Source: an uncultured bacterium
Lineage (GTDB): Bacteria; Babelota; Babeliae; Babelales; Vermiphilaceae
Assembly (NCBI GenBank): GCA_963713925.1
Contig: OY970212.1
Coordinates: 128,001 to 192,000 of the forward strand
Direction of reading: 5' to 3'
DNA length: 64,000 bases
Shown here: positions 16,144-46,677 of the stretch, piece by piece
Numbering within the stretch: the stretch's first letter is position 1
How the letters are laid out: every line of letters starts with the position of its first letter
The notes under the pieces: model-generated
What the model was told of the DNA's origin: nothing
Database searches by the model: none
What the model saw: the letters and a program-made list of their open reading frames with translations, nothing else
Made by a program: the position numbers and the translations under genes

Positions 16144-16566
16144 ATGAAGTTATTACGTCTTATATGCGCTTTTGCACTCTGTTTGACTGGAGTAGCTTTA
16201 CAGGCAAAACCAGAACAGGCAAAACCAGAAAACATTATTCATCTGAAGGACAAAAGAAAAAGCATAATTGCTGAGGCCGGGAAATATGACTTTGTGATAG
16301 TTAAATATTCAGCGCCCTGGTGTGGTCCATGCAAAACTCTTGCCCCGATAATAGAAAGATTGGCACGAGAGTTTCCTAATATAACTATTATTGAAATTGA
16401 TGTTGACGATTATCCGGCACCTTCTTACATAAGACATATTCCAACGCTGGAATTTTACGTTAAAGGTCAAAAAGTAGCTACAGTAGGAAATCAGAGTGAA
16501 CAAGGTATGCGAAACTTAATCAAGCAACATTTCAAACCTGTATGCGCAACGCCTTCAAAGAAATAA
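16144..16566 (+). CDS. Exported thioredoxin
   Basis: WCGPC, IPT cis-Pro loop, signal peptide ALQA. Confidence 0.9.
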   Translation: MKLLRLICAFALCLTGVALQAKPEQAKPENIIHLKDKRKSIIAEAGKYDFVIVKYSAPWCGPCKTLAPIIERLAREFPNITIIEIDVDDYPAPSYIRHIPTLEFYVKGQKVATVGNQSEQGMRNLIKQHFKPVCATPSKK

Positions 16567-19470: not shown

Positions 19471-21072
19471 ATGAAGCAACAAATCCAGAAACTGTTTAAA
19501 GCTCTTATTATATGCATTGCATCGCAAAATTCTTTATTTGCTGTGCTGCAAAATGGATTTTTTCAATATAAGACCGGCGAGCATTCATCTCTTGTACTCG
19601 TAAATACGACTCGATTAGAAAATCAAATTCCGCATGAACTGCAACATTTCAAAAAACTTGCGTTTGAAACTCCGGAATATTTGGCTTATGCGCATACGCA
19701 TAACCAGGATATCATTTTTATAATCGATGATGTTTTTGGAGAAATAAGCCAGCTCAATCCTCAGGCTGCAATTACTGAAGGATCTCGTGTCGCACTCACT
19801 TGGCTGAGCGCTCACTATCGCTTTGCGACAAAGCCACTAGATAATATCAGGGTATTTGTCGTTTCCCACGATGTATCGCTCTCAGAAGAAGACGATATTC
19901 ATGCTATTATTAGTGGCCCGAGAGATCAGAACACAACTCAAACAAAAAATATTGAAGAGAAGTTTGAAAGTTATATTACAAGAATTAAACCATTCAAACA
20001 TGACAATCAAGAATCATTCACGCTACAACCGATTACTCTCGATATAAATCGAGAATCGCCCGTTCGATTTGATATCGGAAACGTGCCGGTTTCCGATCAT
20101 AAACAACGCATCGTCATCACCGGAGCGGCCGGATTTCTTGGATCGCATTTAAGCAAAAAAATTTTAGATGAAGGGCATACGGTTATTGGGCTTGATAATC
20201 TGTCTTGTTGCTCAGGGAAAAATCTTGAAGAACTTCTAAAATCATCTCGATTTCATTTTATCAAGCATGACATATCAAACTCTTACGATTTCAATGAACC
20301 AATAGACATCATCATTCATGCCGCGTCAGTACCAAGTCCCGAATATTATTATAAAATGCCGGTCGAAACGTTGCGCTCGGGATTGCATGGCATTGATAAT
20401 GCACTTGAGCTTGCATATAAATACAATGCTCGCTGCATGTTTACCTCCACTTCGGAAGTCTACGGTGATCCTTCTATTAGCCCTCAACCTGAATCATATG
20501 CCGGCAATGTAAGCCCGATAGGCAAACGCTCACAATATGATGAATCGAAACGAGGCGCGGAAACATTGATTTGGTTCTCATATAAGCAAAAACCGATTGA
20601 TATTCGCATAGCTCGCATTTTCAATACTTATGGCCCTGGTATGGAACTCAATGATGGTCGCGTAATTACTAACTTTATTCAAGCAACGTTATCGGAAAAA
20701 CCGCTTACTATTTATGGATCCGGACTGCAAACAAGAAGTTTTTGTTATGTAGATGATTTAATAGCTGGACTCTTTGAACTCACTGTAACTGAAAAAATTA
20801 ACCAAGATTCATCTTTTGAAGACAGAATTTTCAATGTCGGCAACCCGCATGAATTCACTGTTAATGAATGCGCATCAATCATGCAAGAAATAAGTCAAAA
20901 GCATCTCAATTATCAGCCTACCATACGTTGGATTGCAAACCCAGACGCTACAGATCCGAAACAAAGAAAACCAGACATTACACGCGCCCGCGAACTACTT
21001 GGATTTGAACCAAAAATTAATTTATACGCCGGGCTAGAAAAAACATTCTTGCATTTTAAGGATTTGCAATGA
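19471..21072 (+). CDS. UDP-glucuronate decarboxylase (Uxs)-like SDR with signal peptide and ~190 aa extra N-terminal domain
   Basis: GAAGFLG, TSEVYGDP, YDESK, RIFNTYGP, DGRVITNFI, QTRSFCYVDD, DP.QRKPDI. Confidence 0.88.
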   Translation: MKQQIQKLFKALIICIASQNSLFAVLQNGFFQYKTGEHSSLVLVNTTRLENQIPHELQHFKKLAFETPEYLAYAHTHNQDIIFIIDDVFGEISQLNPQAAITEGSRVALTWLSAHYRFATKPLDNIRVFVVSHDVSLSEEDDIHAIISGPRDQNTTQTKNIEEKFESYITRIKPFKHDNQESFTLQPITLDINRESPVRFDIGNVPVSDHKQRIVITGAAGFLGSHLSKKILDEGHTVIGLDNLSCCSGKNLEELLKSSRFHFIKHDISNSYDFNEPIDIIIHAASVPSPEYYYKMPVETLRSGLHGIDNALELAYKYNARCMFTSTSEVYGDPSISPQPESYAGNVSPIGKRSQYDESKRGAETLIWFSYKQKPIDIRIARIFNTYGPGMELNDGRVITNFIQATLSEKPLTIYGSGLQTRSFCYVDDLIAGLFELTVTEKINQDSSFEDRIFNVGNPHEFTVNECASIMQEISQKHLNYQPTIRWIANPDATDPKQRKPDITRARELLGFEPKINLYAGLEKTFLHFKDLQ

Positions 21073-21129
21073 GATGCGCGGTTTAGATAAACAAAGTAAA
21101 TGAAGCTACTAAAAAAAGGTGAGATGAAA

Positions 21130-22368
21130 ATGAAGCAAATAATATTATCTTTTTTACTTTTATCATTGGGTCAATTAGTCGCTGTAGCAAAACCATCTAT
21201 TACTATTTTAGGAACAGGGTATGTGGGACTTGTTTTGGGAGCGGGGTTGGCAGAACTTGGACATCATGTTATTTGCGCAGATATTGATACCTCAAAGATT
21301 AAATCACTAAAAAGCTCAAAATGTCCATTTTTCGAGCCAAATTTGGAGCCTCTTGTCGTTAAACATGCAGGATTAACTAAAAAACTTGAATTTACAAATG
21401 ATTTAGAAACGGCAATAGAAAAAAGTGATATTATATTTATCGCAGTGGCAACCCCCTCTCGAGATGATGGCTCCGCCGATCTTCAATATTTGTATAATGC
21501 GTTCCATTTAATTTGCGCTTGTATAAAAAAAGATCAACATAAAATTATTTGCATAAAAAGTACTGTCCCTGTTGGAACTGCACAAGAGCTGAGAATGAAG
21601 CTTGCGCAACAAGGCCTTGAAGAAAATATATCCATTGTTTCTAATCCTGAATTTTTGAGGCAAGGGACTGCAGTCACTGACTTCTTCAATCCGGATAGAA
21701 CAATTATTGGTGGAATAAATCAAAATGATATGGAAAACATAAGCTCACTTTTTGGTGCCATCACGCAAAAAAATCCAGTTGTTTTTACCGATAATTCAAC
21801 ATCAGAGCTTATAAAATATGCGGCTAATACATACTTGGCTGTAAGACTATCATTTATCAATGAAATCGATTCATTTTGTTCAAAAGTTGGCGCAAACATT
21901 ACAACACTTACAAAGGCCTTGGGTATGGATAAGCGTATTGGCCCTTACTATTTACGCCCAGGGCCAGGATTTGGTGGATCATGCCTTCCAAAAGATTCCC
22001 GTGCTCTTTTATATCAAGGAAACCAATACAATGTTCCGATGCGAATGATTAAAGCTACTTTGGAAGTGAATCAAGATCGAAAGCATGCTGTTGTTGAAAA
22101 AATAAAAGAGAAATGTGGAAATGATCTTGCTGAAAAAACAATTGGTATCATTGGTCTGTCATTCAAGCCAAATACTGACGACATCAGAGAATCGCCGGCG
22201 ATAGATATTATTAGGGAATTACTTGATTCTGGAGCTCATGTCATAGCGTACGATGATTTAGGAGGAGCGATTGAAAATATGAAAAAGATATTTCCTGATA
22301 TTCAATATGTAACTTCACAAAATGACATCATTGCATTAGCTGATACCTATGTTAACTTAAACAGTTAA
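21130..22368 (+). CDS. ugd: UDP-glucose 6-dehydrogenase, signal-peptide leader, shortened C-terminus
   Basis: GTGYVG, KSTVPVGT, NPEFLR, GFGGSCLPKD, FKPNTDDIRESP. Confidence 0.92.
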   Translation: MKQIILSFLLLSLGQLVAVAKPSITILGTGYVGLVLGAGLAELGHHVICADIDTSKIKSLKSSKCPFFEPNLEPLVVKHAGLTKKLEFTNDLETAIEKSDIIFIAVATPSRDDGSADLQYLYNAFHLICACIKKDQHKIICIKSTVPVGTAQELRMKLAQQGLEENISIVSNPEFLRQGTAVTDFFNPDRTIIGGINQNDMENISSLFGAITQKNPVVFTDNSTSELIKYAANTYLAVRLSFINEIDSFCSKVGANITTLTKALGMDKRIGPYYLRPGPGFGGSCLPKDSRALLYQGNQYNVPMRMIKATLEVNQDRKHAVVEKIKEKCGNDLAEKTIGIIGLSFKPNTDDIRESPAIDIIRELLDSGAHVIAYDDLGGAIENMKKIFPDIQYVTSQNDIIALADTYVNLNS

Positions 22369-22388
22369 GCAACCTATTAACAATAAGG

Positions 22389-23147
22389 ATGAGGATGAAG
22401 CGGCTAATTAATATAATTCTTCTATCAGGTTTTGCATTCAAATTACTAGGACATTATACGGCTGATGAATATATTACCCACGTTAAAAATGCTATAAAAA
22501 AGGCCAATAACTTAGAATCAAAACTTTCTCAAGATATTTTTAATATCGAAGGAATGTCTGGCCTTAAAATAAGGCACCTTCTTAATAATGTATGTGAACT
22601 TCCTGGGGGAAATTATTTCGAAATTGGGGCCTGGAAAGGATCCACATTTATTTCTGCTCTTTATAAAAATGATCGCTTGAATTCTAAAATCGTCTGTGAT
22701 ACCTGGCTATCTGGCACAAAAGAAGATTTTTTAGAAAATGTAAATACATTTATTCCAGAATCATCATTTTTCCTAATTAATGATGATTGCTTTCAAATTT
22801 CTTCTTCGCCAATATTTACAGAAAAAATAAATATTTATTTTTACGATGGGGAGCATTCTTATGAAGATCAATACAAAGCATTCACCTATTTTAATGATAT
22901 TTTCGATGATATTTTTATTGCGATCGTAGATGACTATTATTGGTATGATGTAAGACGGGGAACTGAAGATGCATTCGAAGATCTTGGCTATTCAATTCTA
23001 TTCGAAGAATATTTTGAACCTGATCTTTCAACACACCCTGAGTATGTTCAAAATGGCCTTTTTGATGGGCATGGTTGGTGGAATGGTCTCTATATTGCTG
23101 TAATTAAAAAATCAAATAAAGGAAATTCAAATGAAATTATCAATTAA
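22389..23147 (+). CDS. Class I SAM methyltransferase (Methyltransf_24-like)
   Basis: EIGAWKGST, YDGEHSY, VDD; hydrophobic leader. Confidence 0.8.
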   Translation: MRMKRLINIILLSGFAFKLLGHYTADEYITHVKNAIKKANNLESKLSQDIFNIEGMSGLKIRHLLNNVCELPGGNYFEIGAWKGSTFISALYKNDRLNSKIVCDTWLSGTKEDFLENVNTFIPESSFFLINDDCFQISSSPIFTEKINIYFYDGEHSYEDQYKAFTYFNDIFDDIFIAIVDDYYWYDVRRGTEDAFEDLGYSILFEEYFEPDLSTHPEYVQNGLFDGHGWWNGLYIAVIKKSNKGNSNEIIN

Positions 23148-23775
23148 CATACTTATGTTGCTGTGCTTTGCTAATGTATACAGCTCAAATCCATATCATT
23201 TAGACAATTTATTACCTTTAAATCTGTGGGGCTGGATCAACGAAAGTAACAAGCAGAGAATCGCTCAATTAATTCAGCAACATCATACTCAAGTAATAGT
23301 AGAACTTGGCTCATGGCTAGGCGCATTTACTCAATTTATCGCTGAAAATAGTGATAAAGATGCAAAAATTTATGCGATTGACGTTTGGGAAGAAACACCT
23401 GAATGCAAAGCAGCTATGTCATTATCAGAACAAGAATCAAAAAAGTTTTTTAGTAAGCTTTATCACCAATTTCTTTCAAATATAATACATCTCAATATGC
23501 AAGATAAGATTATACCCATTAAAATGACTACATTGGAAGCTGCACAGAAAATCGATATTATTCCGGATCTTGTGTATGTTGACGCATCTCATACAGAGAA
23601 CGATGTATACAATGATATAAAATATTGGTATCCAAAAATTGTTTCAGGAGGAATAATGTGTGGAGATGATTGGAGCTGGGACTCTGTAAGAAGAGGTGTA
23701 ACAAGAATAGCTCAGGAACTTGGTCAAACAATACATGTCGACAATAATTTTTGGTGGTTCAATCCTAAAAATTAA
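23131..23775 (+). CDS. Class I SAM methyltransferase (Methyltransf_24-like)
   Basis: ELGSWLG, YVDASH, GG.MCGDDW; signal peptide. Confidence 0.85.
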   Translation: MKLSINILMLLCFANVYSSNPYHLDNLLPLNLWGWINESNKQRIAQLIQQHHTQVIVELGSWLGAFTQFIAENSDKDAKIYAIDVWEETPECKAAMSLSEQESKKFFSKLYHQFLSNIIHLNMQDKIIPIKMTTLEAAQKIDIIPDLVYVDASHTENDVYNDIKYWYPKIVSGGIMCGDDWSWDSVRRGVTRIAQELGQTIHVDNNFWWFNPKN

Positions 23776-23796
23776 AACTCAAAAAAAAGGCATCAT

Positions 23797-24816
23797 ATGA
23801 AATTGTTAAATATACTATGCATAGGATCAGTAATACAATGCATATCTCTTTTCCCTTCAATCAATATATGGCAAAAAACCAACTTTATTTGGAATTTTGG
23901 AATAATTGCTTCAAGCAAAGTAGGATTAGACAAATTACCAATCCATTACTTTAGCACATCGCCGACATTCAACAAAGGCGCTTATCAAAATATAAAGAAA
24001 GGTGACATTGTTTGGGTTAAATGTGAATTCTTTCATTTATTTTGTAAACAAGTCTTACCTTACATCGATAATGAATTTGCTATAGTAATTGGTGATGGGG
24101 ATGAGTCATTCCCATCGCAATCGGGTTGCAGTCCAGAAGAAATAGAAGCAGTTCTTACAAACAAAAATATAATACATATTTTTGCACAAAATTATGATTA
24201 CTCTGGCCCAAGCACAAAAATAAGCCCTCTGCCTATCGGCATAGATTTTCACACCATAGCTTATAAAAGCGTTCACGGTGGTTGGGGTGAAGTTGGAACG
24301 CCGCAACAACAAGAAAATGATCTAAAGTGTATTTTAAGTACGTTCAAGCCAACATATCTTCGAAAGAAAAGGGCATTCGTAGATTTTCAATTGGCAGACA
24401 GTATATTACATGGAAACAACCAGAGATATCTTCAGCTTGGTGAAACGAGGACATCAATTTTTCAACGACTACTTCAAACAGGCTTGATAGATCATGGTGG
24501 TCGCATGAGAAGATCTGAGCTTTGGAAGACAAAAGGACAATATGTCTTTTCAGTTAGTCCTCACGGCAATGGACTTGATTGTCATCGAACCTGGGAAGAT
24601 CTTGCGCTTGGTTGCATAGTAATTGTTAAAACTTCCTCACTCGATCCCTTATATGAAGGATTGCCGGTAGTAATAGTCAAAGATTGGGGAGAAATTACGG
24701 AAGATAATATGACAAAATGGCTTAACCAATATGGTGATGCTTTCACAAACCCTTCATACCGAGAGAAATTAACAAATGCCTATTGGCTCAACAAAATAAA
24801 ATCAAAAATGGCGTAA
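23797..24816 (+). CDS. Exostosin/GT47-like glycosyltransferase
   Basis: SPHGNGLDCHRTWE.LALGCIVIV...LP.V.V.DW motif. Confidence 0.65.
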   Translation: MKLLNILCIGSVIQCISLFPSINIWQKTNFIWNFGIIASSKVGLDKLPIHYFSTSPTFNKGAYQNIKKGDIVWVKCEFFHLFCKQVLPYIDNEFAIVIGDGDESFPSQSGCSPEEIEAVLTNKNIIHIFAQNYDYSGPSTKISPLPIGIDFHTIAYKSVHGGWGEVGTPQQQENDLKCILSTFKPTYLRKKRAFVDFQLADSILHGNNQRYLQLGETRTSIFQRLLQTGLIDHGGRMRRSELWKTKGQYVFSVSPHGNGLDCHRTWEDLALGCIVIVKTSSLDPLYEGLPVVIVKDWGEITEDNMTKWLNQYGDAFTNPSYREKLTNAYWLNKIKSKMA

Positions 24817-24990
24817 TTGATCACTTATCCTTGATTCCGTATTGAATTAAATGGTGTGAGGTAAGCAAACTTACTTCATGCCTTTTTTTGTTTATATTCA
24901 AGAATCTTTTATCAATTGCTTTTGTCTATAAAAAAACGTCAATATAAAAAATAAGTCGCGATTGTTTGGTTTTTAATCTAGGGGCAAGGG

Positions 24991-25725
24991 GTGAATATGA
25001 CACATTTTTATCCGTTTTTGGTATCAATTGTTAATTTTTTTATATTCACAATAACAATGCCTATGGTACATATTTTTGGGGATAGTCATGCAGTATTTTC
25101 TTTCTCTCCTGATGCCATCCTGAAAACAGGAGTTTGGACAATATTTCAAAATAACCAACGGCACTACATTCCTTTTTCTATTCATTGGTTAGGTCCAATT
25201 ACGATGCATCGAGTTGGGAGAGATGGGCTCATTTTTCTTGACATTCGCAATTACAATATTCAAGAAAAAGATACAATAATTTTTGTATTTGGAGAAATTG
25301 ATGTACGTTGCCATATTAGAAAACAATGCGAACTTCAACAATGTCATTTTAATGAAATCATAGAGGAATTAGTTAGCAACTATTTAAAAACTATAAATAT
25401 CAATCGAGCAATGTATAAAGATCTTCACTGTATTATTTTTAACATAGTTCCCCCTAGCGATGCAGCATATAATCCAGATTTTCCTTTCTATGGGACACTT
25501 CAAGATAGGGTTCAGATTACGTATGCAATAAATAATACATTAAAACATTTTTGCAATTATCATGAAATTGACTTTTTAGAGATAAATGATTTGTTTATGG
25601 ACGCAGCAGGAGCATTAAGAAAAGATATAAGCGATGGAACTGTCCACATTCATCCTCAGCATAATCATTCTATAAAGGAAAGATTGCTGTCTATTTTATT
25701 AAAGAACAAATCAATAAGATCCTAA
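24991..25725 (+). CDS. SGNH/GDSL-like hydrolase or acyltransferase
   Basis: FGDSH, GEIDVR.H, C-terminal DGTVH. Confidence 0.7.
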   Translation: MNMTHFYPFLVSIVNFFIFTITMPMVHIFGDSHAVFSFSPDAILKTGVWTIFQNNQRHYIPFSIHWLGPITMHRVGRDGLIFLDIRNYNIQEKDTIIFVFGEIDVRCHIRKQCELQQCHFNEIIEELVSNYLKTININRAMYKDLHCIIFNIVPPSDAAYNPDFPFYGTLQDRVQITYAINNTLKHFCNYHEIDFLEINDLFMDAAGALRKDISDGTVHIHPQHNHSIKERLLSILLKNKSIRS

Positions 25726-25751
25726 ACCGGTTTCCGAGCAAAGATACTATA

Positions 25752-26837
25752 TCAATCATATATATAATTAAAAGTCATTCGAGGATTTATATATAATTTA
25801 TCATGGCCATTAATTATCATCGAAGCATGTAAAGTTACATGTTCACAAACAACCGGATATTGATAGGTGCAAGTAAAACCACTCATACGAAATACAACAG
25901 GATTTTTTTCCTGTCTAATAACAACCCCAACAAGTGGATCCGTAATTAATTCTGCAAAAGGAGCAGGTTGTGGTAAATAAGTACGCGTATGAAATCGCTT
26001 TAGTTCATCCCAATATTTTCTGACATAAAAATTATTTTTTAAACTATCCTCTGACAATATTTTCAATATCAATTTTTCCAAATCCGATGTAACCAATGCA
26101 GAATATCGACATCCCTTAAGGGAACTTCTTTTGTAAATGCCACATCCGCCGAATGCCGAATAAACTGGATACCAATCACTATTAAGATCTAACGACCTTT
26201 GCTTACCATACCACCAATCGTCTCCCACTACTTCCGGCCCCAAGGGCCATGTTGTGTCTCTTAGTGCATACCAATCGTAAAAATCTCCATTATTAACTAA
26301 AATTCCATTTGCAAAAACCGCATCCCATTCTTTTGCAGATAAAAAAACCTCTTTAATTCCTTCTAAATTAGGAAATATTTTAAAATCAAAATCCATCCAA
26401 ATAATATACGGATAGTTTTCATATTCTTCCGACATCGCCTTTTCTAACACTATGTTACGTGCCCGAGCAATAAGCTCGGGTCGAAATAAATCGTCTTTTG
26501 TTCTTGGATCAAAATCACAATTGATTATTGATTGTGACAAAACTGATTTTTCGATATTTTCAGAAAAAGCTGAAATTTTAGAATTATGGAAGGTCCATTG
26601 TTTAAGCATGCTCGGAGTTAAATCTGTTGAATTGTTTTCATACACAATGACACGATAATCTTCAAACATTGAGCCAATCGATTCTACAATAGAAATAGTT
26701 TGATTGAGCTGCTTGTCAACATTTTTGCACACACCACATATTAATACTTTGGCGGGTATAGTTGCGGAATTTATCATAAAAATATAAAAGGCTAATATAT
26801 GGAATATTAGTCTCAGCTGTCCTAAATTACCATGCAT
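25752..26837 (-). CDS. CAP59/GT69-like glycosyltransferase, paralog 2
   Basis: CGVCKN, YENNSTD, ARARN, DxD, YDWYALRD, SAFGG, CEHV.LH, INP. Confidence 0.7.
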   Translation of the reverse strand: MHGNLGQLRLIFHILAFYIFMINSATIPAKVLICGVCKNVDKQLNQTISIVESIGSMFEDYRVIVYENNSTDLTPSMLKQWTFHNSKISAFSENIEKSVLSQSIINCDFDPRTKDDLFRPELIARARNIVLEKAMSEEYENYPYIIWMDFDFKIFPNLEGIKEVFLSAKEWDAVFANGILVNNGDFYDWYALRDTTWPLGPEVVGDDWWYGKQRSLDLNSDWYPVYSAFGGCGIYKRSSLKGCRYSALVTSDLEKLILKILSEDSLKNNFYVRKYWDELKRFHTRTYLPQPAPFAELITDPLVGVVIRQEKNPVVFRMSGFTCTYQYPVVCEHVTLHASMIINGHDKLYINPRMTFNYIYD

Positions 26838-27888
26838 AAGTAAAAAGCATCCTTGGATTGATGTACAACTTATCATGACCGTGTGCAATCATAGAAGCAT
26901 GTAATGTTACATGCTCACATACGGAAGGATATTGAAATGTGTGTGTATTCATTCTCCAGATAATCGCATCTCGAGCAGTTCTTATTGCGATACCAACCCA
27001 AGGGTCTGTAATCGCAGGACCTTGTACAATTGGCTTTTCATAATATCTAATGGTGTGAAATGTTTTTCGTTCATGCCAATACTTCTTCACAAATTGATTA
27101 TTTCGAAGGCGCTCATCAGATAGAATGCGTGAAACTAATGTTTCCAAGTCAGGTGTAATCAATGCCGAATAATGACATCCTTGAAGTGATGATCTTTTAT
27201 AAACTCCGCATCCACCAAATGCGGAATAAACGGGATACCAGTTGCTATTTTTTGATAAAGTTAAATGTTTTTTTTGCCACCAATCATTGCCAATCACCTC
27301 AGGTCCAAGAGGATAATTTTTGTCTCGCAATGCGTACCAGTCGTATGTTTCTTCGGTTCCAACCACAACTCCGTTTGCAAAAACGGCATCCCACTCTTCG
27401 GTTGAGTAAAAAACTTCTTTAATACCTTCAAAGTTTGGCATAATTCTAAAATCAAGATCAAGCCAAATAATATATGGATAATCTTCATATTCTGCCGACA
27501 TTGCTTTATTTAACGCTATATTTCTTGCTCGAGAAATTCGTTCAGGTCGAAATAATTCTTTGAAATAAGTGCAAAAATTGACGATCTCCTTTGCTAGCAA
27601 AGCTTCAGAAACTACTTCGGTAAAAATAGAAACTCGGGCGTTTTGTTGTGACCATTGTATGAGCTTCTTAATAGTAGAATCCGTTGAATTATTTTCGTAT
27701 ATGATGACCCTATAATCATCAAACATACTCCCAATAGATTCTACTATATTTATAGTGCAAGGTATTTTACTTTCAATATTCTTACAAACACCACAAATAA
27801 GGACCTGTGTTGGTATGGTTGTATAAATAAATTGATAGCTGCTTAATACCAACAAACCTACCAAGCATTTCTTTAAAGACATAACCAA
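26827..27888 (-). CDS. CAP59/GT69-like glycosyltransferase, paralog 1
   Basis: Same motifs; tandem duplicate; signal peptide. Confidence 0.7.
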   Translation of the reverse strand: MVMSLKKCLVGLLVLSSYQFIYTTIPTQVLICGVCKNIESKIPCTINIVESIGSMFDDYRVIIYENNSTDSTIKKLIQWSQQNARVSIFTEVVSEALLAKEIVNFCTYFKELFRPERISRARNIALNKAMSAEYEDYPYIIWLDLDFRIMPNFEGIKEVFYSTEEWDAVFANGVVVGTEETYDWYALRDKNYPLGPEVIGNDWWQKKHLTLSKNSNWYPVYSAFGGCGVYKRSSLQGCHYSALITPDLETLVSRILSDERLRNNQFVKKYWHERKTFHTIRYYEKPIVQGPAITDPWVGIAIRTARDAIIWRMNTHTFQYPSVCEHVTLHASMIAHGHDKLYINPRMLFTYAW

Positions 27889-27906
27889 CTCCCGGCAAAA
27901 ATAATT

Positions 27907-28635
27907 TTATAGATCTTTATGCCTAAAAATTGCGTACCCATTGCGCAATTGCCAATTAAATTCTATGAGTTCATAATGAGGATCTTGCAGTAATGAATGA
28001 TAATTTTCATAGTTTTTAAAAGCATTGATATCATCAAGTAAAATGAATTTAGCTCCATACACGAGCTTTAATTCTGATTTTCCTGAAAATTCTGATCCGT
28101 CAATCAAAACAATATCGAAAAAATCTATTCCGTTAACCTGTTTAATATGTTCGATACCATTTTTAATAACATCATGAGATACAATGTATTGAATATCAAT
28201 ACCTAACCATCTTAAAACTTCCTGCAGAGGATAATTATTGAGATTGGTATGTGTCGAATAATAAAAATCAATGATCTCTTTTTTAGAAGGAAAAGCCTCA
28301 GCCGGAATTGATGAAACATTATAACATTTTACCCGCGGTTCATGAGCATATCTTCCTTGCAATGCAGCAAACCTCGTTTGAGAAATTTCCATACAGTACA
28401 ACGTTGGTTTATTTGGATTTCTTTGAATTCCTAAGGCAAAAGCTTCTGTGCTACCAGCACCGTTTGAAGATCCTATTTCTAAAATCGTTTTAATATCTTC
28501 AGTCTCGGAAATTCTGTAAATTGCCTGATAAAAAGAATCATTTTTAATTTCTGCAGGAATGATGATGCGATCAAGTGCAGAATTAGCATTTAAAGAAGGA
28601 ACAAAAAACAGTCCAAATAAATATTTTAATTTCAT
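27907..28635 (-). CDS. SAM-dependent methyltransferase-like protein
   Basis: LEIGSSNGAGST, LIDGSEF, LDD; signal peptide SLNA. Confidence 0.7.
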   Translation of the reverse strand: MKLKYLFGLFFVPSLNANSALDRIIIPAEIKNDSFYQAIYRISETEDIKTILEIGSSNGAGSTEAFALGIQRNPNKPTLYCMEISQTRFAALQGRYAHEPRVKCYNVSSIPAEAFPSKKEIIDFYYSTHTNLNNYPLQEVLRWLGIDIQYIVSHDVIKNGIEHIKQVNGIDFFDIVLIDGSEFSGKSELKLVYGAKFILLDDINAFKNYENYHSLLQDPHYELIEFNWQLRNGYAIFRHKDL

Positions 28636-28653
28636 TAAAATCCTCTTTATTTA

Positions 28654-29478
28654 TTAATTAATATCATTCCAAATAACTATATCACCCATTTTAATTGGCA
28701 CTTCATGAAGAACTTTTACTGATTTGCCTCTTTGTCGTAAAAGGTTTACAAACTCTGGAATTGAAAGAGGATTTATTTGAGGAAAGTGATTATAAATCAT
28801 GTAGCCTCTGGGAGCAAGATCAATAATAGACTCCATATATTTCATTTGTTCATCTCTATCAATTTCAGAAAAAGCATAGTTGCTGATGACTAAATCATAT
28901 TTTTTAGGTGAACCTAAATCAGTATGATTAATAGTTTTGAAGTTTTTGATTGCAAAATGAGATAAATACTTATTAATTAAAGGAGTAACCGCAGGAATAT
29001 CAATCATCGTATAGCTTCCAAAACCTGAAATGTCATTGACAATTTTGCATTGTCCTCCAAATCCTCCGCCTATTTCAACAATGTCAAAATTACTCAGGTC
29101 TCCAAATTCTCTCTGTAAATCCCCAAAAACTTTTACATATCTTAAAACGGTTGGTGAAATAGTTCCTATTTCAGGATAGTGAAAGCTAATAGGTGCTCCA
29201 AAAGAATCTTCTGCACAAATTTTGCTTAAATACGGTAGAATGTGAGAATAATGACATTTTATTTCATTTAAAAAAAATACACCGAAATCATAAATACCAC
29301 ATGTTTCTACAATGCCACGATATACAGGATTACTTCTGAATGTTCGGAAAACTGCATCATTTTGTGCAGCCAACAGACAAAAAGCTGGGTATGTATTATT
29401 ATCTGATATGCTTTTGGAAAAAATTGATTCAAAAGTGATAGTAAAAAAGCCTATAAACAATAAGGTGAGTCTCTTCAT
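28654..29478 (-). CDS. Putative sugar O-methyltransferase
   Basis: VEIGGGFGG, YDLVISNYAFSE; hydrophobic leader. Confidence 0.75.
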   Translation of the reverse strand: MKRLTLLFIGFFTITFESIFSKSISDNNTYPAFCLLAAQNDAVFRTFRSNPVYRGIVETCGIYDFGVFFLNEIKCHYSHILPYLSKICAEDSFGAPISFHYPEIGTISPTVLRYVKVFGDLQREFGDLSNFDIVEIGGGFGGQCKIVNDISGFGSYTMIDIPAVTPLINKYLSHFAIKNFKTINHTDLGSPKKYDLVISNYAFSEIDRDEQMKYMESIIDLAPRGYMIYNHFPQINPLSIPEFVNLLRQRGKSVKVLHEVPIKMGDIVIWNDIN

Positions 29479-29508
29479 TTTAATACCTTTCAGTGTTAAT
29501 TATTATCT

Positions 29509-30399
29509 TTATTCAATAGGACACAATTCAAATTCAAAACTTTTCAACTTTCCAGCCCAAAACGAGTAGTTCGACAATGGACGAATCAAACAATCAAAAC
29601 GAGTCATCGCAAACATATCTTCCAGAACGTTTCTGGTATGATGGTTGCCTGATTTCCGATAGTCATATTCGATGTTTGGGTAGTCTTTCAATTCTGAGTT
29701 CAAAGAGTTAACAAGCTTTTCCGGCTCTTGATCATCGGTAAAAATGAAAACATACAGAGGTTGATTATTGTATTGCTCGGAAAGTTTTTTAAGATGTTCT
29801 ACATAAAATGGCAGAGGAGGAAATTTGAGCGGAAAAATATGATCTACAAACTGTGCCGGTCTAGGCCCCTTGTGATCATAAGAAAGGGCTGGATCAAAAC
29901 CACCACCTCGCCTGATATGAAGGGCAACGGTGATTTTATTTTCGGGTAAGTCAGGCTCTTGAAATCTGTTGATCGGCTTGATCATGGAGCGTAGTTGATT
30001 CATAAATAGTGTATCATGCCAATCAACCGGAAAATAAATCATGGCATGCTCATTATAACTCATGTTTCTATCCCAAGCGAATTCGCTGAAATAGGGAACT
30101 TCGTAAATTACATCTTTGTTCACGTCAATCCGCATGTCTTGACGTGAAAGTCGAATAATCTTTCTATTTCTTACGTTATCAAATGGGATTTCTGATTTAT
30201 GGAGCACGAGCTGATCGGAATAAGGGAATGATTTGTACAACAACGGAATACCATATTTATATGAAATCCATTTCGCATGGGCGTATGAAATAAGATTATC
30301 ACCAAATCTACCTCCACTAAAACCATAGGTTACATATGCGCGAGCGTGTGCAACGCCATGCACCAGAAATAAAATACTCACTAAAATGTGCTTCATCAT
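29509..30399 (-). CDS. GT11-like (alpha-1,2-fucosyltransferase-like) glycosyltransferase
   Basis: GRFGDNL, ALHIRRG, FTDD, SNYSFWA; signal peptide AHA; adjacent to gmd/fcl. Confidence 0.7.
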   Translation of the reverse strand: MMKHILVSILFLVHGVAHARAYVTYGFSGGRFGDNLISYAHAKWISYKYGIPLLYKSFPYSDQLVLHKSEIPFDNVRNRKIIRLSRQDMRIDVNKDVIYEVPYFSEFAWDRNMSYNEHAMIYFPVDWHDTLFMNQLRSMIKPINRFQEPDLPENKITVALHIRRGGGFDPALSYDHKGPRPAQFVDHIFPLKFPPLPFYVEHLKKLSEQYNNQPLYVFIFTDDQEPEKLVNSLNSELKDYPNIEYDYRKSGNHHTRNVLEDMFAMTRFDCLIRPLSNYSFWAGKLKSFEFELCPIE

Positions 30400-30401
30400 G
30401 T

Positions 30402-31640
30402 TCATCCTATCGTAATACAAACATCTTCATCATCCAAAAACGAAATTTCATCAATATTCGCACATAAATCGTCAAACAACAATTCTTTTAAATCACACCT
30501 ACGCGTTAAAAATGTTGAACCGGACAGAGGGTATCTAAAATTTTCTGATGCATGTACGGGCTGCCATGCAAGTGCCCCGAATGATAATTCCACATAGGTT
30601 GAACCGGATGCGCGAAGATCATTGGCCGCATTAAAATATGCAACTTTTGCTCCCGTTTTTTCAAGATAATGTATTGCGCGTTGCGCATCTTGGTCAGAAA
30701 TATTTGTTGGTTCAGTAGAAACTAAAAGATAATCCGACGTACAATTGTCAATTGTGACATGCAATTGGCATCTCGGTGAAGACTTCGTAATGCGAGAAAC
30801 TGTTTTCCCTACACACTTTTTTTCAATATTTATCGGAATCTTCAATGGTTGATACGGAGCACGGGCCAATATGTAATCGCACAAAAAATGCTGTAATGAC
30901 TTATCAACTTGATGATCGTTAATTGGATTAAACTCGTTGTAAATATAGAGCACTTTTTCTATACATTTGTGTCTTCGGCCGCACATTTCAATTATAGGTG
31001 CCATAATTGCCTTATCGCAGGTCATTGGATAAAAATCGCCTTCGTACAAAACGTCTTTTAGTTTTATTTGTTTGAATATCCATGCGTAATAGGTTCTTAA
31101 ATGTGAAATCGGCAATTTACCTGGCGATTGGCGAAAGCGATTTGCTCGGATGATATCATCAGAAAATGGCTTACAAAAGCCAATCGTGTTATGTCGGTCG
31201 AATAAAAATTGGCCAAATGTCATCCATACGTCACTGTCGGCGTATACCCTATTGAGGTATTTCAAAACGTTACTATCAGCAAGCCAATCATCGCCATCAA
31301 CGTTGACTATGATAACTTCATCGGGACATGCATGAATAGCGTTATAAAAATTTGCCATTGCGCCACGGCGGGTTGAATTTGAAATGAGAGTCACTTTGTC
31401 TTGGGCATTATGCCTTTTGATTGTTTCCGTGACTCTTTCAAATGTTGTATCTGATGAGCAATCATCAATATAGACAACATGAAAACTCAAATAATCTTGA
31501 GTCAATATCGATGTAAGATTGCGTTCAACCCATTGCTCATTGTTGTAGGAGGGCACAACAATTACAAAGAATTTTTCTGCGTGAATCTGGATGAAAGCGA
31601 GGCTTCCAAGCAAATATGCAAAAAAGTGTAATAGCTTCAT
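30402..31640 (-). CDS. GT2 glycosyltransferase
   Basis: VVPSYN, IDDCSSD, VDGDDW; signal peptide IHA. Confidence 0.85.
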   Translation of the reverse strand: MKLLHFFAYLLGSLAFIQIHAEKFFVIVVPSYNNEQWVERNLTSILTQDYLSFHVVYIDDCSSDTTFERVTETIKRHNAQDKVTLISNSTRRGAMANFYNAIHACPDEVIIVNVDGDDWLADSNVLKYLNRVYADSDVWMTFGQFLFDRHNTIGFCKPFSDDIIRANRFRQSPGKLPISHLRTYYAWIFKQIKLKDVLYEGDFYPMTCDKAIMAPIIEMCGRRHKCIEKVLYIYNEFNPINDHQVDKSLQHFLCDYILARAPYQPLKIPINIEKKCVGKTVSRITKSSPRCQLHVTIDNCTSDYLLVSTEPTNISDQDAQRAIHYLEKTGAKVAYFNAANDLRASGSTYVELSFGALAWQPVHASENFRYPLSGSTFLTRRCDLKELLFDDLCANIDEISFLDDEDVCITIG

Positions 31641-31658
31641 ACTTTCGCTCCCTTTTAC

Positions 31659-32543
31659 TTATCTTTCTATAAATGTCGGGCAACATTCCATGTGAGCCCC
31701 TTTATTGTGAATTTTATGCAACCGAGAAATATCTATTTTGTTGCCAGATAAAAATTGCTCTAGCAAGTGTGCTGCACTCATTTCAGACATGTGTCTATTT
31801 CCTTGATAGTCTTGTTGCACCAAATTGAGTGGCATATTCACTATTTTGGAAAAAGTGAAGCATATACCTTTTTTGTGCAAAACCGATCTGTATTGTTCAT
31901 GCCAGTGAGCTTCCAATGTATTAGGCGAATGATACGTCAAAGATGAGATAACCGGCAGAATGTCTGCTTTTCTGTAAAGGGTCATATCAACTGTGTTGGG
32001 ATATCCCCAATCGCATGATCCGTTTGCCAATGTCCATTCAAAAATATCTCCGGATTGTCGTCCTGTAGGAATCGGTTGTTTACAGTTGAGCATATAACAT
32101 TCAGATAAGTTGAAGCCAAGCCTGAAATAAAAACCATATGCGCCAAATTGCTTGAGTTGCTTGGCGCAGAATAGCATGTCAAAGTCATCCTTGACGACTA
32201 TGTCATCAACGGCAAAAACAACAAACTCATTGCCAGTTCTTTTTAATGCGTGCTCGGTAAGCGGCTTGAAATCAGCGCGTGGGTTGCTCCCTTGTCGCGT
32301 GAATTGTGCCTGTGGAAATGTTTGAGCGACAATATCGTATCCCTTTTGATATTGATCATTGCTTGAGCGATAAATAACTTCAATTCGAGAAAGGCCGGTA
32401 ACATAGGTATCAATCGATTCAAGCAATGCATAAAGTTGCATCGGTCTATCAAATGAAAAGATGATCATATCAACATTCGGCTGCTGAGCGAAGCCGGAAA
32501 AGAATGAAAAAAAAGAAAGAAACATTACTAGTTTTAACTTCAT
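31659..32543 (-). CDS. GT-A fold glycosyltransferase-like protein
   Basis: IFSFDRPMQLYALLESI, FAVDD; signal peptide GFA. Confidence 0.65.
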   Translation of the reverse strand: MKLKLVMFLSFFSFFSGFAQQPNVDMIIFSFDRPMQLYALLESIDTYVTGLSRIEVIYRSSNDQYQKGYDIVAQTFPQAQFTRQGSNPRADFKPLTEHALKRTGNEFVVFAVDDIVVKDDFDMLFCAKQLKQFGAYGFYFRLGFNLSECYMLNCKQPIPTGRQSGDIFEWTLANGSCDWGYPNTVDMTLYRKADILPVISSLTYHSPNTLEAHWHEQYRSVLHKKGICFTFSKIVNMPLNLVQQDYQGNRHMSEMSAAHLLEQFLSGNKIDISRLHKIHNKGAHMECCPTFIER

Positions 32544-33367
32544 ACCTTTATCTCCAAAGAGGTTACCGTACCATATTTTGGTTTGCTACGAATATACATA
32601 TCAAGGCGGGATTGGAATTCTCTATTCACTTTTGAGTCGTTAAGCGGGGTTCCATAATTATAGATGTACAGGACATCGGGAATAAATCGAGAGTGTGTTC
32701 CAGTCATTTCAAGCATCGGGATCATTAATGCAACATCCCAAGCCATCGGATAAAATACGCCTTCATACAGGAGATCCTCTTTTTTTATCATCTTAAAAAG
32801 TTTTGCATAAAAGGTGCGTAAATGGGATGTATGCCATTCATATGATCGGTATGTTTTTTGTTCAATGACCCAACGCGGCAATTCGTGAAACCAGCTTGCC
32901 TGATTTAATGGCCACCATATGAACGTGCCATAGGTCATCCACACTTCGCCTGATTCATATTCTTGCGCAAGTCGTTCAAGCACATGCTCATGAGCAAACC
33001 AATCATCACCATCGAGCAATACTACTATTTCATCATCATCGCACGAATGTATTGCCTGATAGATATTTGCCAGAGCGCCTTGGCGTTGTTCATTGTTAAT
33101 GAACAACGCTTTATGTGCGTGTCGATGTTGTGCAATGTATTCTTGCACTAATCGAGCCGTGTCATCAGTTGATACGTCGTTAACATAGATAATTCTGAAA
33201 TCATCATATTCTTGATTCAGAGCTGAACTTAAGTTGCGTTCAAGCCATTCTTGATTATTGTACGAGGGAATTACGATGACAAAGCGTGGCAATGCTTCAC
33301 AGAAAGACATGCACAATACCACCTGTGACACAACGAAAAACTTAATAATTATTTTTTGTAGAATCAC
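32540..33367 (-). CDS. GT2 glycosyltransferase
   Basis: VIPSYN, VNDVSTD, LDGDDW; paralog of 30402. Confidence 0.85.
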
Positions 33368-34478
33368 CGTAAAGCTCCTGTTCCATCATATCGGCAACCA
33401 ACATATTAAAATTGTAATATGGTTTCCAACCAAGTGTTTGACGCGCTTTAGAAGAATCTCCGAGTAAAAAATCAACTTCGGGCGGACGGAAATATTGCGG
33501 GTCAACAAACACGAGTTCTTGACCAGTTTCAGCATTGTACCCAACTTCTTCAACTCCGGAGCCTTTCCAAGCAATCTTTATATCAACATATGCAAAGGCA
33601 GCCTCAACAAACTCACGAACAGAATGAGCTTCTCCTGTTGCAACCACGTAATCATCGGGTTCATCCTGTTGCAGCATTAACCACATTGCCTGGACATAAT
33701 CTTTTGCATGTCCCCAATCACGCATTGCATCAAGATTTCCCAAATAGAGAGCTTTCTGCTCTCCCCGAAAAATTGCCCCGACAGCGCGTGTGATTTTGCG
33801 TGTGACAAAAGTTTCGCCGCGATAGGGAGATTCATGATTGAATAAGATTCCATTGACTGCATATATGCCATATGATTCGCGATAATTTCTTGTGATCCAA
33901 TAGGCATAGAGTTTTGCTACACCATAAGGAGAGCGTGGATAAAAAGGGGTAGTTTCTTTTTGAGGAATTTCAACAACTTTACCAAACATTTCGCTTGTAG
34001 ATGCTTGATAAAAGCGAACTGTTTTTTCAAGTCCAGCGGATCGAATTGCTTCCAGCAAATATAATGTTCCCAATCCATCGGATAAACCGGTATATTCCGG
34101 CATCAAAAAAGATACTTTTACATGGCTTTGAGCCGCAAGGTTGTATACTTCATCGGGTTTTATTTCTCTCATCAAGCGGATAAGATTAGATGTATCAGTC
34201 AAATCTCCATAATGAAGAAAAAATCGATGATCTCTTTTTTCATGAAGGTCGTGATACAACTTATCGATTCGAAATGTGTTTATTGAAGAACTTCTTCTTT
34301 TAATTCCGTGAACTTCATATCCCTTATCAAGCAGAAGTTCAGCCAAGTAGGCTCCATCTTGGCCGGTTATTCCGGTTATAAAAGCTTTTTTTCTTTGAAC
34401 AGTGTTTCCCCCGCGCACTTCTGTTGTGATGATCGAGCAAAACAAGGCGCACAGGATGAATTGAATTATATGCTTCAT
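33342..34478 (-). CDS. gmd: GDP-mannose 4,6-dehydratase with signal-peptide-like leader
   Basis: [42 protein letters not shown]. Confidence 0.96.
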
Positions 34479-34538
34479 AATACTATCATTCTACTTTTTA
34501 TTTATACCCATGCGGTTTTGTAATGCGCATGAGCTAAT

Positions 34539-35537
34539 TTACTCTTTTATATGATTTGTTTGGTGATACCACGCAATAGTTTTTGCAATTCCTTCTTCAA
34601 GTGAGGTTGATGCTTTCCAGCCTAGAGCATTTATTCGATCGACATTGAGCAGTTTTCGAGGAGTGCCATCAGGCTTTGTGTTGTCATACACCAATTCTCC
34701 TTCAAAGCCGACCGCTTTTTTTATTTTTTCAGCCAACTGGCCAATGGTAAGCTCTTGTCCCGTGCCGACGTTAACAACCTCATCGCCGGTGTAATTATTC
34801 ATTAGGAAAACGCATGCATCAGCACAATCGTCGACATATAAAAATTCTCGATATACTTTTCCAGTCCCCCAAATGACAACATTTTCGGCATTAGTTTCTT
34901 TTGCGCAAATCATTTTGGAAAGTAATGCAGGCAATACGTGAGACATTGTCAGATTAAAATTATCGCCCGGGCCATAGAGATTGGTTGGCATGCACGCAAT
35001 AAAATTAGTTCCGAGTTGACGATTATATGACTGACACAATGAGATACCGGCTATTTTTGCAATAGCATATGCTTCATTGGTTTTTTCCAAACCACCACTC
35101 AAGAGATATTCTTCTTTAATGGGTTGTGGACAATCGCGTGGATAGATGCAAGAAGTGCCTAAAAATAATAATTTTTTCACGCCATATTTATAGGATGAAT
35201 TAATAACATTGAGTTCAATCGCCAAATTTCTGAAAATAAAATCAGCCGGATAATCTCGATTGGCTACAATTCCTCCAACTTTTGCTGCCGCAAGAAAGAC
35301 ATATTCAGGACGTTCATTTGCAAAGAATGTTTCAACATCTTCTTGTCTGCATAAATCGAGCTCTTTAGATGTTCGTGTAATAATGTTTGTGTAACCTAAA
35401 GATTTAAGTCTGCGTACAATAGCTGAACCTACAAGTCCGGTGTGCCCGGCAACATAAATCTTTGCATCAAAAGGCATGCCCGCCTGTATGTGAACAAAGG
35501 TGCTCAAAATTATCAAGAATAGCTTCATTATTTTCAT
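34539..35537 (-). CDS. fcl: GDP-L-fucose synthase with signal-peptide-like leader
   Basis: [41 protein letters not shown]. Confidence 0.95.
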
Positions 35538-41369: not shown

Positions 41370-42450
41370 CTACTGAGACATCAGTTATTGCTTTAGTGCT
41401 TATTGATTCAGCTTGCTCGATGTCAGCGTGTGAGCAGGGCATTAAGCTTTCATACAATCGTTTCTTGTCCAATTGTGCAACCCATATCTCAAAATCTTGT
41501 CGGCCGTAGGTAATCCAAATATATTCTTTTTCAGCGATGATTCCCATGGGAAATACGACGCGCAATGGCTTCCAGGTAGGATATGCAGGCGCATTGTAAA
41601 AATTTTTTTCCACAATTGGCAGGGGACTTATGTCAGTAACTGCAAACGGCGGTTCGCTTGAAAATCGGTAGGCTCCCATGACATAGTGGGACATTTTTTT
41701 CCCGTCTGAATGAACCGTTTCCATTTCTTGTGACGAATGAAAAAATGAAATGTATTTTCCTTCATCTAAAATTGCCGGTGTTCCGCCACGCAACACTCCC
41801 CATGGCCAATGTATATTGCATTGTGTTGAAGATACTGTCTGACAATAGCCATCTTCATATGATGGCTTGAGAATGATGTGCGGATTTTGACTGTAGGCAA
41901 GCAAAAGTGAGTCCTGATAATTAAAAGGAGTCCAATTCTTTTGCCATCTGGTAAGCGATCCGAAAGATGAGTTTAAGCATAATGGGTTTTCTACAAAAAA
42001 AGTGTCTCCATCTTGCTGCATCTGAGCAACAAACATTCTCCGTGTGACAAAATCATCAATTTTTGTGAAATTGCAGTATAAAATGTGGAGCTTTCCTTGA
42101 ATGACAATCAAGCGTGGGTCTTGATTTTGATTAAAAGAAGAATCAGTATCTTTTATTTTCAAAATCTGAGGTCGGCTTATTGGGTTAAATTCTTCATCGA
42201 GCCACACACATCCAACTTGAAAAGTTGATCTCATATGCGTGTCTCTCACTCGAAAACACATGAGTAATGAATTTTGCCAGCGAATGACAGATGCGTTAAA
42301 TGCTCCGGGATACCCGGGGATATGTATCTGCTTGGTTTGAAGAACAAAGTCTTGACAATAATCTGTGAGATCAATCAATGCCGCGCGTGATACATTTGAC
42401 AGTACCAACAGATATATCAGTAAAAATCTAACAATTTCCACTTTGATCAT
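41344..42450 (-). CDS. Paralog of 40320 gene
   Basis: FNASV, QDPRL, QKNW, RGGT, VFP.G, YGRQD; signal peptide SRA. Confidence 0.65.
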   Translation of the reverse strand: MIKVEIVRFLLIYLLVLSNVSRAALIDLTDYCQDFVLQTKQIHIPGYPGAFNASVIRWQNSLLMCFRVRDTHMRSTFQVGCVWLDEEFNPISRPQILKIKDTDSSFNQNQDPRLIVIQGKLHILYCNFTKIDDFVTRRMFVAQMQQDGDTFFVENPLCLNSSFGSLTRWQKNWTPFNYQDSLLLAYSQNPHIILKPSYEDGYCQTVSSTQCNIHWPWGVLRGGTPAILDEGKYISFFHSSQEMETVHSDGKKMSHYVMGAYRFSSEPPFAVTDISPLPIVEKNFYNAPAYPTWKPLRVVFPMGIIAEKEYIWITYGRQDFEIWVAQLDKKRLYESLMPCSHADIEQAESISTKAITDVSVDENIYDIS

Positions 42451-46634: not shown

Positions 46635-46677
46635 AATCAGTCTTTTAAATGATACCGATATTCTTCATATTGATTCA

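Follow-up and report, generated by a model that had tools for sequence, protein, structure and literature searches.

The DNA analysed here, referred to below as the window, is a 64,000-nucleotide stretch (contig OY970212.1, positions 128,001 to 192,000) of an uncultured Babelota bacterium of the family Vermiphilaceae, whose genome is one 1.32-Mb contig with 95.75% completeness. Positions 19471-35537 of the window hold a glycan biosynthesis locus in which 15 of the 16 open reading frames (ORFs), nucleotide-sugar enzymes included, start with a signal-peptide-like leader. As judged from their sequence, the leaders are likely Sec/signal peptidase I (SPase I) signal peptides, and most look cleavable. 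We consider export of the enzymes in some form to be probable, and we lean towards a Sec route into the envelope and the assembly there of a fucose/xylose/O-methyl surface glycan from host-derived precursors. An extracytoplasmic glycosylation line had already been proposed in a sequence-only reading of the same DNA, which the present analysis appears to support in part. The source bacterium is likely a parasite of protists.

Layout of the locus and its enzymes

Leaders were called by a heuristic rule rather than by SignalP, combining a net basic n-region with an uncharged 8-residue window of mean Kyte-Doolittle hydropathy of at least 2.3. In a background test the rule fired on 41 of 4092 internal methionines. 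The 16 ORFs form two converging blocks, running from the uxs-like to the SGNH-like gene on the plus strand and from fcl to the CAP59-like genes on the minus strand; only the SGNH-like ORF at 24997 fails the rule, in agreement with the earlier claim that nearly every enzyme is leadered. The locus makes up the longest run of rule-positive genes in the genome (18, the next longest being 10; the SGNH-like ORF is uncalled and stands outside the run). Catalytic domains begin right behind the leader, at residues 30-33 in Gmd, 25-27 in Fcl, 23 in Ugd and 27 and 31 in the two GT2 glycosyltransferases (GTs). Shine-Dalgarno matches are found at the leader starts of most locus genes, and four gene junctions overlap by 4-26 bases. 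The leaders quoted earlier for Uxs, Ugd, Gmd and Fcl are present exactly as written. A flippase, Wzy, an ABC exporter, a priming transferase, manB/manC and galU are indeed all lacking from the locus. No structured RNA reached the gathering score in the window. The features are as follows, each leadered by the rule unless stated otherwise:

19471..21072, plus strand: Uxs-like NAD-dependent short-chain dehydrogenase/reductase (SDR), likely UDP-GlcA decarboxylase; PF01370 at 214-457, GAGGAG before the ATG
21130..22368, plus strand: Ugd nucleotide-sugar dehydrogenase, C-terminus about 45 residues short; TIGR03026 above cut-off
22395..23147, plus strand: methyltransferase 1; PF13578 E 2.9e-5, just below cut-off
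23131..23775, plus strand: methyltransferase 2; PF13578 E 1.7e-14
23797..24816, plus strand: GT47/GT114-like transferase, likely xylosyltransferase; chlorovirus A075L match, RXYLT1/exostosin-like Atlas neighbours
24997..25725, plus strand: SGNH-like hydrolase/acyltransferase, hydrophobic N-terminus, rule-negative; PF13472 E 1e-3, below cut-off
25752..26837, minus strand: CAP59/GT2-like GT-A transferase a; PF00535, with PF11735 just below cut-off
26827..27882, minus strand: CAP59/GT2-like GT-A transferase b; family search and viral homologue
27907..28635, minus strand: putative methyltransferase 3; labelled by a motif for binding S-adenosylmethionine (SAM), no family match
28654..29478, minus strand: putative sugar O-methyltransferase; TIGR04371 above cut-off
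29509..30396, minus strand: putative fucosyltransferase ('GT11-like' by motifs only); homologues near gmd in relatives
30402..31640, minus strand: GT2 transferase a; PF00535 from residue 27
31659..32543, minus strand: GTX, family-less GT-A-fold transferase with a conserved DD motif; predicted model and homologues
32540..33367, minus strand: GT2 transferase b, GTG start overlapping the gmd stop; PF00535 from residue 31, GGAG before the GTG
33342..34478, minus strand: Gmd, GDP-mannose 4,6-dehydratase; TIGR01472 584 bits, cut-off 415
34539..35537, minus strand: Fcl, GDP-L-fucose synthase, ancestral Met at residue 21; NF047922, GAGGAG before the leader ATG
42447..43316, minus strand: polysaccharide pyruvyltransferase, unlinked, possibly of the same glycan line; PF04230 E 9e-16

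Gmd passes the TIGR01472 cut-off with its GITGQDG, TSE and YxxxK motifs intact, and Fcl, whose gene adjoins gmd, scores 468 bits against a cut-off of 500 with NF047922, by far its best model (E 1e-140). Ugd carries GGSCLPKD and passes TIGR03026, with PF03720 matched only over 1-69 of 103. The Uxs-like protein shows SDR motifs in a domain that starts at about residue 213 behind a 190-residue region; NCBIfam models fall far short, the best (NF008872) staying below its cut-off, and the gene adjoins ugd and lies near the A075L-like gene. The 190-residue region (window 19543-20100) has no Pfam match and no counterpart among the relatives' loci compared.

The only PDB matches of the GT47-like protein (23797) are to chlorovirus A075L (E 3e-10), described as a beta-xylosyltransferase in PMC11571054. 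The significant alignment is confined to the C-terminal 86 residues and does not take in the acceptor domain; GT114 membership would call for similarity over the full length and for equivalents of the catalytic Asp73, Arg158 and Arg208. GTX is predicted with a mean model confidence (pLDDT) of 93, matches GT-A folds at E 1e-8 and has invariant D113 and D114. The label 'GT11-like' for the protein at 29509, presumed from motifs only, found no backing: searches returned no match in Pfam (PF01531 included, E 0.005-0.01), NCBIfam, PDB or phage proteins. Homologues of this protein lie near gmd in relatives' loci. Four leadered methyltransferases had also been listed; all four have leaders, and one (methyltransferase 3, 27907), which we take to be a methyltransferase from a SAM-binding motif, matched no Pfam or NCBIfam family and no PDB entry. 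The PDB sequence search was blank for methyltransferase 2 (23131).

Four of the locus genes have homologues on a 225-kb viral contig (L303) with Shine-Dalgarno motifs, i.e. bacterial-type translation signals. They lie in a leaderless methyltransferase and glycosyltransferase cassette (L303:53-6663) at 33-44% identity: the counterpart of the GT47-like protein is 44% identical and starts at residue 22, a single viral protein matches both CAP59-like transferases (42% for a, 41% from residue 23 for b), and the counterpart of methyltransferase 3 is 33% identical from residue 26. The viral proteins begin at residues 22-27 of the locus proteins; one of seven L303 ORFs is rule-positive, and none of the homologues of the four genes. 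In the bacterial genome the four genes lie in a block of 33% GC between flanks of 38-39%. Leaderless viral homologues together with the low GC content suggest a recent arrival followed by leader gain, and incoming genes would appear to gain leaders.

Outside the locus, another leadered GT2 was observed in the genome, as well as a second leadered glycan cluster encoding an NAD epimerase, a GTX paralogue, an unknown protein and a GT6 (L050:3499-7195; G000:57683-61379). At 45965-47697 of the window five tandem short paralogous ORFs (109-118 residues) follow a 662-residue leadered protein, an arrangement resembling a toxin-immunity array.

Leaders in relatives, controls and the genome background

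True Gmd is encoded in 21 of 40 relatives. We counted leaders over 25 intact copies from 20 genomes, leaving out a split copy in G030, and found 17 leadered copies (15 by rule, two by eye) in 16 of the 20 genomes. The leader sequences are divergent, the cores behind them 54-69% identical across genera. In a midpoint-rooted FastTree of Gmd cores, from which six database rows lacking the motif were left out, the non-Babeliales clade (FastTree 0.92) contains zero rule-positive leaders; likewise none of 19 named non-Babelota Gmd proteins is rule-positive. Among the matches listed, the sole named leadered Gmd and all three organism-named GTX homologues belong to 'Candidatus Dependentiae'. These names point to Dependentiae/Babelota, a placement that the 1.32-Mb genome, the NTT carriers and the lack of an LpxC match would also suit. 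The ESM Atlas cluster nearest to Gmd (367 residues) is commonest in Chlamydiota, and leadered Gmd may occur there too; no Chlamydiota name appeared among the Gmd matches listed (two lists of the best 120), and ten leadered clusters are nameless.

The pattern extends to the other enzymes. Fcl is present in 81 of 201 genomes of the phylum, and 38 of 78 parsed copies are leadered, with one probable false positive among them and, as judged by eye, several leaders that the rule overlooked. By family, these are 28 of 41 copies in the family of the source genome, 10 of 25 across five others and 0 of 12 across a further six. Ugd is leadered in all 11 same-family genomes (10 by rule, one by eye) and in none of 6 from other families, ManC in 10 of the 20 copies read among relatives, and GTX in 105 of the best 120 of 621 homologues. 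In G001, G008, G010 and G014 the whole series of ManC, Gmd, Fcl and transferases has leaders. A WecB-WecC fusion and a bi-domain oxidoreductase beside the leadered genes are leaderless throughout the relatives' loci. In several relatives (L028, L030, L032, L033, L038, L039) one or both of them lie directly upstream of ManC/Gmd/Fcl, and a PMT-like membrane transferase and a HIT protein were seen near these genes in some of them.

The sequence-only reading was open to refutation by non-conserved leaders or by true starts downstream of them. As a feature, the leaders are kept across Babeliales. A downstream ATG from which a whole enzyme could be made is missing in most leadered copies of Gmd and Ugd: for Gmd, the 12 codons preceding the Rossmann motif are free of ATG in 13 of 17 leadered copies, and for Ugd the majority of leadered copies have no downstream ATG backed by a Shine-Dalgarno match. 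A GTG that had been suspected at VQRKK in gmd does not exist; the in-frame GTG is V21. The housekeeping controls suggested earlier, TyrS, UvrB and NrdA, are rule-negative. GlmU is rule-positive in only 2 of 25 parsed genomes, with a Shine-Dalgarno-backed ATG 6-9 codons before the domain in 25 of 25. We accept that the GlmU 'leader' of this genome, absent in 23 of 25 and accompanied by a canonical internal start, is a chance extension. For Gmd, Fcl, Ugd and ManC, chance ORF extension was rejected on the basis of recurrence and Shine-Dalgarno placement.

Genome-wide, 467 of 1167 called genes are rule-positive, or 519 of 1167 (44%) when alternative starts are considered. A proteome with 44% predicted signal peptides and no genes for lipopolysaccharide (LPS) is described for Chromulinavorax (PMC6561590). 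Given these two figures, leaders as such are ordinary in this genome; unlike leaders in general, those on the enzymes of this locus are not. 'Reference exported' proteins were drawn from the rule-positive set, a comparison that speaks for likeness only and provides no sensitivity estimate. The wider leadered set comprises further cofactor-dependent proteins, namely thioredoxins, an SDR, six GNATs, a nitroreductase, an Fe/Mn superoxide dismutase, a ferritin, a DnaJ and two AAA proteins. Of 25 genomes parsed, 21 have a leader on a long thioredoxin reductase-thioredoxin fusion (TrxR-Trx), which is accompanied by a short TrxR without one. Neither the 44% background nor this wider exported set had been considered in the earlier reading. 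The leadered fusion, found order-wide, lies at L083:9078-10571 (G000:729360-730853), and two leadered thioredoxins are encoded in the window (16144-16566 and 59685-60356).

Proposed export, precursor supply and alternative explanations

Each leader places a basic n-region and a hydrophobic h-region before the domain, and the genome encodes both the translocon and SPase I: SecY, SecD/F, YidC and LepB were found. Absences from the genome reported here come from family searches, whereas the protein-by-protein scan covered the rule-positive set. By these searches TatC, LpxC, DsbB and MetK were not found in the genome, and NadE gave nothing above the cut-off. OprB and BBP7 porins and two DsbD are present, together with four TLC-family (NTT) nucleotide importers and one EamA. 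Four S49 signal-peptide peptidase genes, three of them in tandem, were observed at L097:12744-15366 and L076:17748-18662, a number that fits a heavy load of cleaved leaders. The hallmarks of a Wzx/Wzy or ABC cluster, i.e. a priming transferase, a flippase, polymerase or exporter near the locus and leaderless precursor enzymes, are missing. A priming transferase (Bac_transf, PF02397) was not found in the genome, the only related protein being a MraY-type PF00953 protein, and no Wzx, Wzy or PMT name occurred among the 64 of 80 multi-transmembrane proteins scanned. In relatives, PMT-like membrane transferases adjoin three loci.

Several TrxR and glycosyltransferase leaders resemble, by eye, uncleaved anchors or lipoprotein signals. 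Of 466 soluble proteins with leaders, 86 have a tripeptide 'xAD' behind the hydrophobic core (8 and 7 in internal-window controls). It occurs in 7 of 19 effector-like versus 0 of 23 envelope proteins and at none of the predicted cleavage sites of the 15 locus proteins, a post hoc and weak comparison; possibly it marks the mature end of proteins destined for onward secretion. Anchor-like leaders judged by eye, PMT-like neighbours and the post hoc 'xAD' are what separates an envelope from a host-side location, and they are weak evidence.

In the mechanism that we propose, the enzymes would pass Sec as unfolded chains, because TatC was not found, and acquire their cofactors after folding on the far side. 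The periplasm would hold host SAM, NAD(P)H, nucleoside triphosphates and nucleotide sugars: with MetK and NadE missing and NTT/EamA import at the inner membrane, host molecules must cross the periplasm, which makes their use there feasible. The exported NADPH-type TrxR-Trx would be in line with such periplasmic host nucleotides. Gmd and Fcl would convert host GDP-Man to GDP-Fuc, UDP-Xyl would be the product of Ugd and Uxs, of which Ugd may be impaired in this genome, and relatives with a leadered ManC would make GDP-Man outside from Man-1-P and GTP. GT-A and GT-B transferases would add sugars straight from nucleotide donors, so that a flippase would be unneeded, and methyltransferases would cap the chains. 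The acceptor could be an envelope glycolipid or a surface protein, the glycan replacing the missing LPS on the infectious particle.

The search for manC, galU and metK suggested earlier gave a mixed answer: manC and metK were not found in the genome, while galU is present elsewhere in leaderless form, along with pgm/pmm genes (GalU, PgmG, GlmM). That ManC and MetK are missing is consistent with GDP-Man and SAM coming from the host, a source suggested earlier for the nucleotide sugars; UDP-Glc may be the bacterium's own. A Fuc/Xyl/O-methyl glycan is the likely product on account of Gmd/Fcl, Ugd/Uxs, the A075L-like protein and the parallel with chlorovirus PBCV-1. The xylose arm of the glycan proposed earlier is weakened here by the truncated Ugd. 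We put forward tentatively, giving it a little less than even chances, a cytosol-like reducing periplasm supplied with host NADPH, GTP, SAM and sugar phosphates. It would have taken in a whole nucleotide-sugar-to-glycan pathway (ManC, Gmd, Fcl, Ugd, transferases and methyltransferases), with a leader for each newly acquired gene, and neither lipid carriers nor flippases would be needed to make a coat in place of LPS.

A number of observations weigh against envelope export. Among the 493 rule-positive proteins scanned, CTP synthase, iPGM, a NUDIX, L15 and GlmU are false positives of the rule; it also has false negatives, and the background is 44%. A start picker took the leader start in 13 of 15 called genes; for gt2b it settled on a start further downstream, and for gmd on the V21 GTG. 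Neither of the two gmd starts is preceded by a Shine-Dalgarno match. In 33 of 38 leadered Fcl a start codon (ATG or GTG) survives no more than 12 codons from the domain, which would allow a cytoplasmic isoform. Three genomes are mixed: in G018 ManC is leadered and Gmd and Fcl are leaderless, in G023 Gmd is leadered and Fcl leaderless, and in G024 ManC is leaderless and Gmd and Fcl are leadered. Uxs is leadered here only, in none of four parsed relatives (one more being unparsed). GalU is a cytoplasmic enzyme, and no exporter for nucleotide sugars was recognised in the genome, which does contain two unlinked ABC exporters, 18 family-less membrane proteins and genes of a type II secretion system (T2SS) or pilus (GspC, GspD and two GspF) that could carry enzymes on to the host. 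Finally, 387 residues of Ugd follow the Rossmann motif, compared with 430-468 residues in 15 relatives of full length, and the xylose arm is therefore weaker in this genome. One DNA sequencing run matched the locus without differences at low depth, with zero cover over the ugd end, so an assembly error may account for the truncation as well as a real deletion. At window 22300-22368 no remnant of the lost end was seen downstream in any frame.

The T2SS genes would also suit a different destination. The enzymes could be Sec-exported and then released through T2SS/PulD or outer-membrane vesicles to the host cytosol or vacuole, a route that we consider unlikely without calling it far-fetched. With GDP-Man, UDP-Glc, NADPH and SAM of the host they would there glycosylate the parasite surface or host targets, in the manner of chloroviruses, which bring enzymes of their own. 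The host cytosol contains every substrate needed; most hosts, however, make GDP-Fuc themselves, which lowers the value of secreted Gmd and Fcl. Leadered ankyrin, WD40, AAA, DnaJ, PP2C and GNAT proteins occur in the genome and suggest a route to the host cytosol. For Babela, which is described as growing in a vacuole, signal-peptide-bearing ankyrin and AAA proteins are inferred to be secreted and to act in the amoeba cytoplasm (PMC4378268), and Chromulinavorax is reported to grow in the host cytoplasm with vesicle release (PMC6561590). Against release stand the homologues that look membrane-anchored by eye and, weakly and post hoc, the missing 'xAD' at the cleavage sites of the locus proteins.

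The retained Fcl starts, the V21 GTG of gmd, the mixed genomes and the two ABC exporters without an assigned substrate would all suit enzymes that act in the cytoplasm, either by dual targeting from a downstream start or as a metabolon tethered to the cytoplasmic face of the inner membrane. We regard this as improbable. Only 3 of 38 leadered Fcl have a good Shine-Dalgarno match at the internal start, the late ATG is missing from most leadered Gmd and, with Shine-Dalgarno backing, from most leadered Ugd, and no priming transferase was found in the genome, nor Wzx or Wzy among the multi-transmembrane proteins scanned. By the positive-inside rule a basic n-region ahead of a hydrophobic core gives an N-in, C-out orientation, which also speaks against tethering. 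Less probable still is that leaders accreted neutrally by recombination onto dispensable genes and that the exported enzymes do little. The 44% leader background, the patchy presence of Fcl and the damaged genes (the truncated Ugd here, the split Gmd in G030, a broken Fcl in G039) are compatible with this reading; intact catalytic motifs, the conservation of leadered Gmd cores across genera, whole pathways leadered together in four genomes and neighbouring WecB-WecC and oxidoreductase genes that remain leaderless speak against it.

Comparison with known glycosylation systems

In the textbook scheme for bacteria, nucleotide sugars, NAD(P)H and SAM stay inside the cytoplasm, while lipid carriers take the glycans out. 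Gmd, Fcl, Ugd and Uxs are normally soluble cytoplasmic enzymes in bacteria that need NAD(P), GDP-Man or UDP-Glc, just as methyltransferases need SAM. With Wzx/Wzy- and ABC-type clusters, both the synthesis of precursors and their use on undecaprenyl-PP take place in the cytoplasm, and the product is then flipped. The locus shares its Gmd, Fcl, Ugd and GT2 families and an operon-like layout with Wzx/Wzy and ABC-type O-antigen, capsule and colanic-acid clusters (manC-gmd-fcl-ugd). It differs from these clusters in its leadered enzymes, and in that a priming transferase, Wzx, Wzy and LpxC were not found. Some Babeliales do have leaderless loci of the ordinary kind, L036 with its ABC transporter being one.

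The Golgi apparatus uses type II transferases, a lumenal UXS1 and nucleotide-sugar transporters, whereas eukaryotic GMD, FX and UGDH are cytosolic and their products are imported. Nucleotide-sugar-dependent transferases predicted beyond a membrane are Golgi-like, and relatives' loci contain eukaryote-like families (GT6, GT14, GT17, GT23/NodZ, GT32-like, Anp1 and a sulfotransferase). Unlike in the Golgi, the leaders here mostly look cleavable, the precursor enzymes are leadered too and no nucleotide-sugar transporter came to light. The glycosyltransferases that intracellular bacteria deliver as effectors are single enzymes without Sec leaders, carried by type III or IV systems. They resemble the locus in that bacterial enzymes are predicted to work outside the bacterial cytoplasm on host donors; here, however, a whole pathway including precursor synthesis is concerned.

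Chromulinavorax and Babela are Dependentiae with proteomes rich in signal peptides, the 44% share and the lack of LPS genes being described for Chromulinavorax. The available text of PMC6561590 contains no mention of glycosyl, sugar or fucose and that of PMC4378268 no mention of sugar (supplements lying outside). The literature searched, which excluded subscription papers and supplements, yielded nothing on nucleotide-sugar enzymes with leaders in this phylum. If export holds, an architecture with exported precursor enzymes would be a second one for bacterial glycan synthesis. It could answer what coats diderm cells lacking LPS and turn the signal-peptide share of Dependentiae into testable claims on the chemistry of the periplasm. 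The soluble transferases, including the widespread family-less GT-A group with its 621 homologues, could serve as useful enzymes.

A similar kit is found in chlorovirus PBCV-1, which for its autonomous N-glycosylation encodes the GMD A118R, the GMER A295L, the exostosin-like xylosyltransferase A075L, a fucosyltransferase and the A064R/A061L methyltransferases (PMC9614988, PMC11571054). According to PMC9614988, the virus makes GDP-Fuc from host GDP-Man and uses leaderless, mostly soluble transferases and O-methyltransferases. The PBCV-1 enzymes are without signal peptides, whereas here a cell with a cytoplasm of its own has export signals on its enzymes. By analogy, the locus would work like chlorovirus glycosylation placed behind a Sec translocon.

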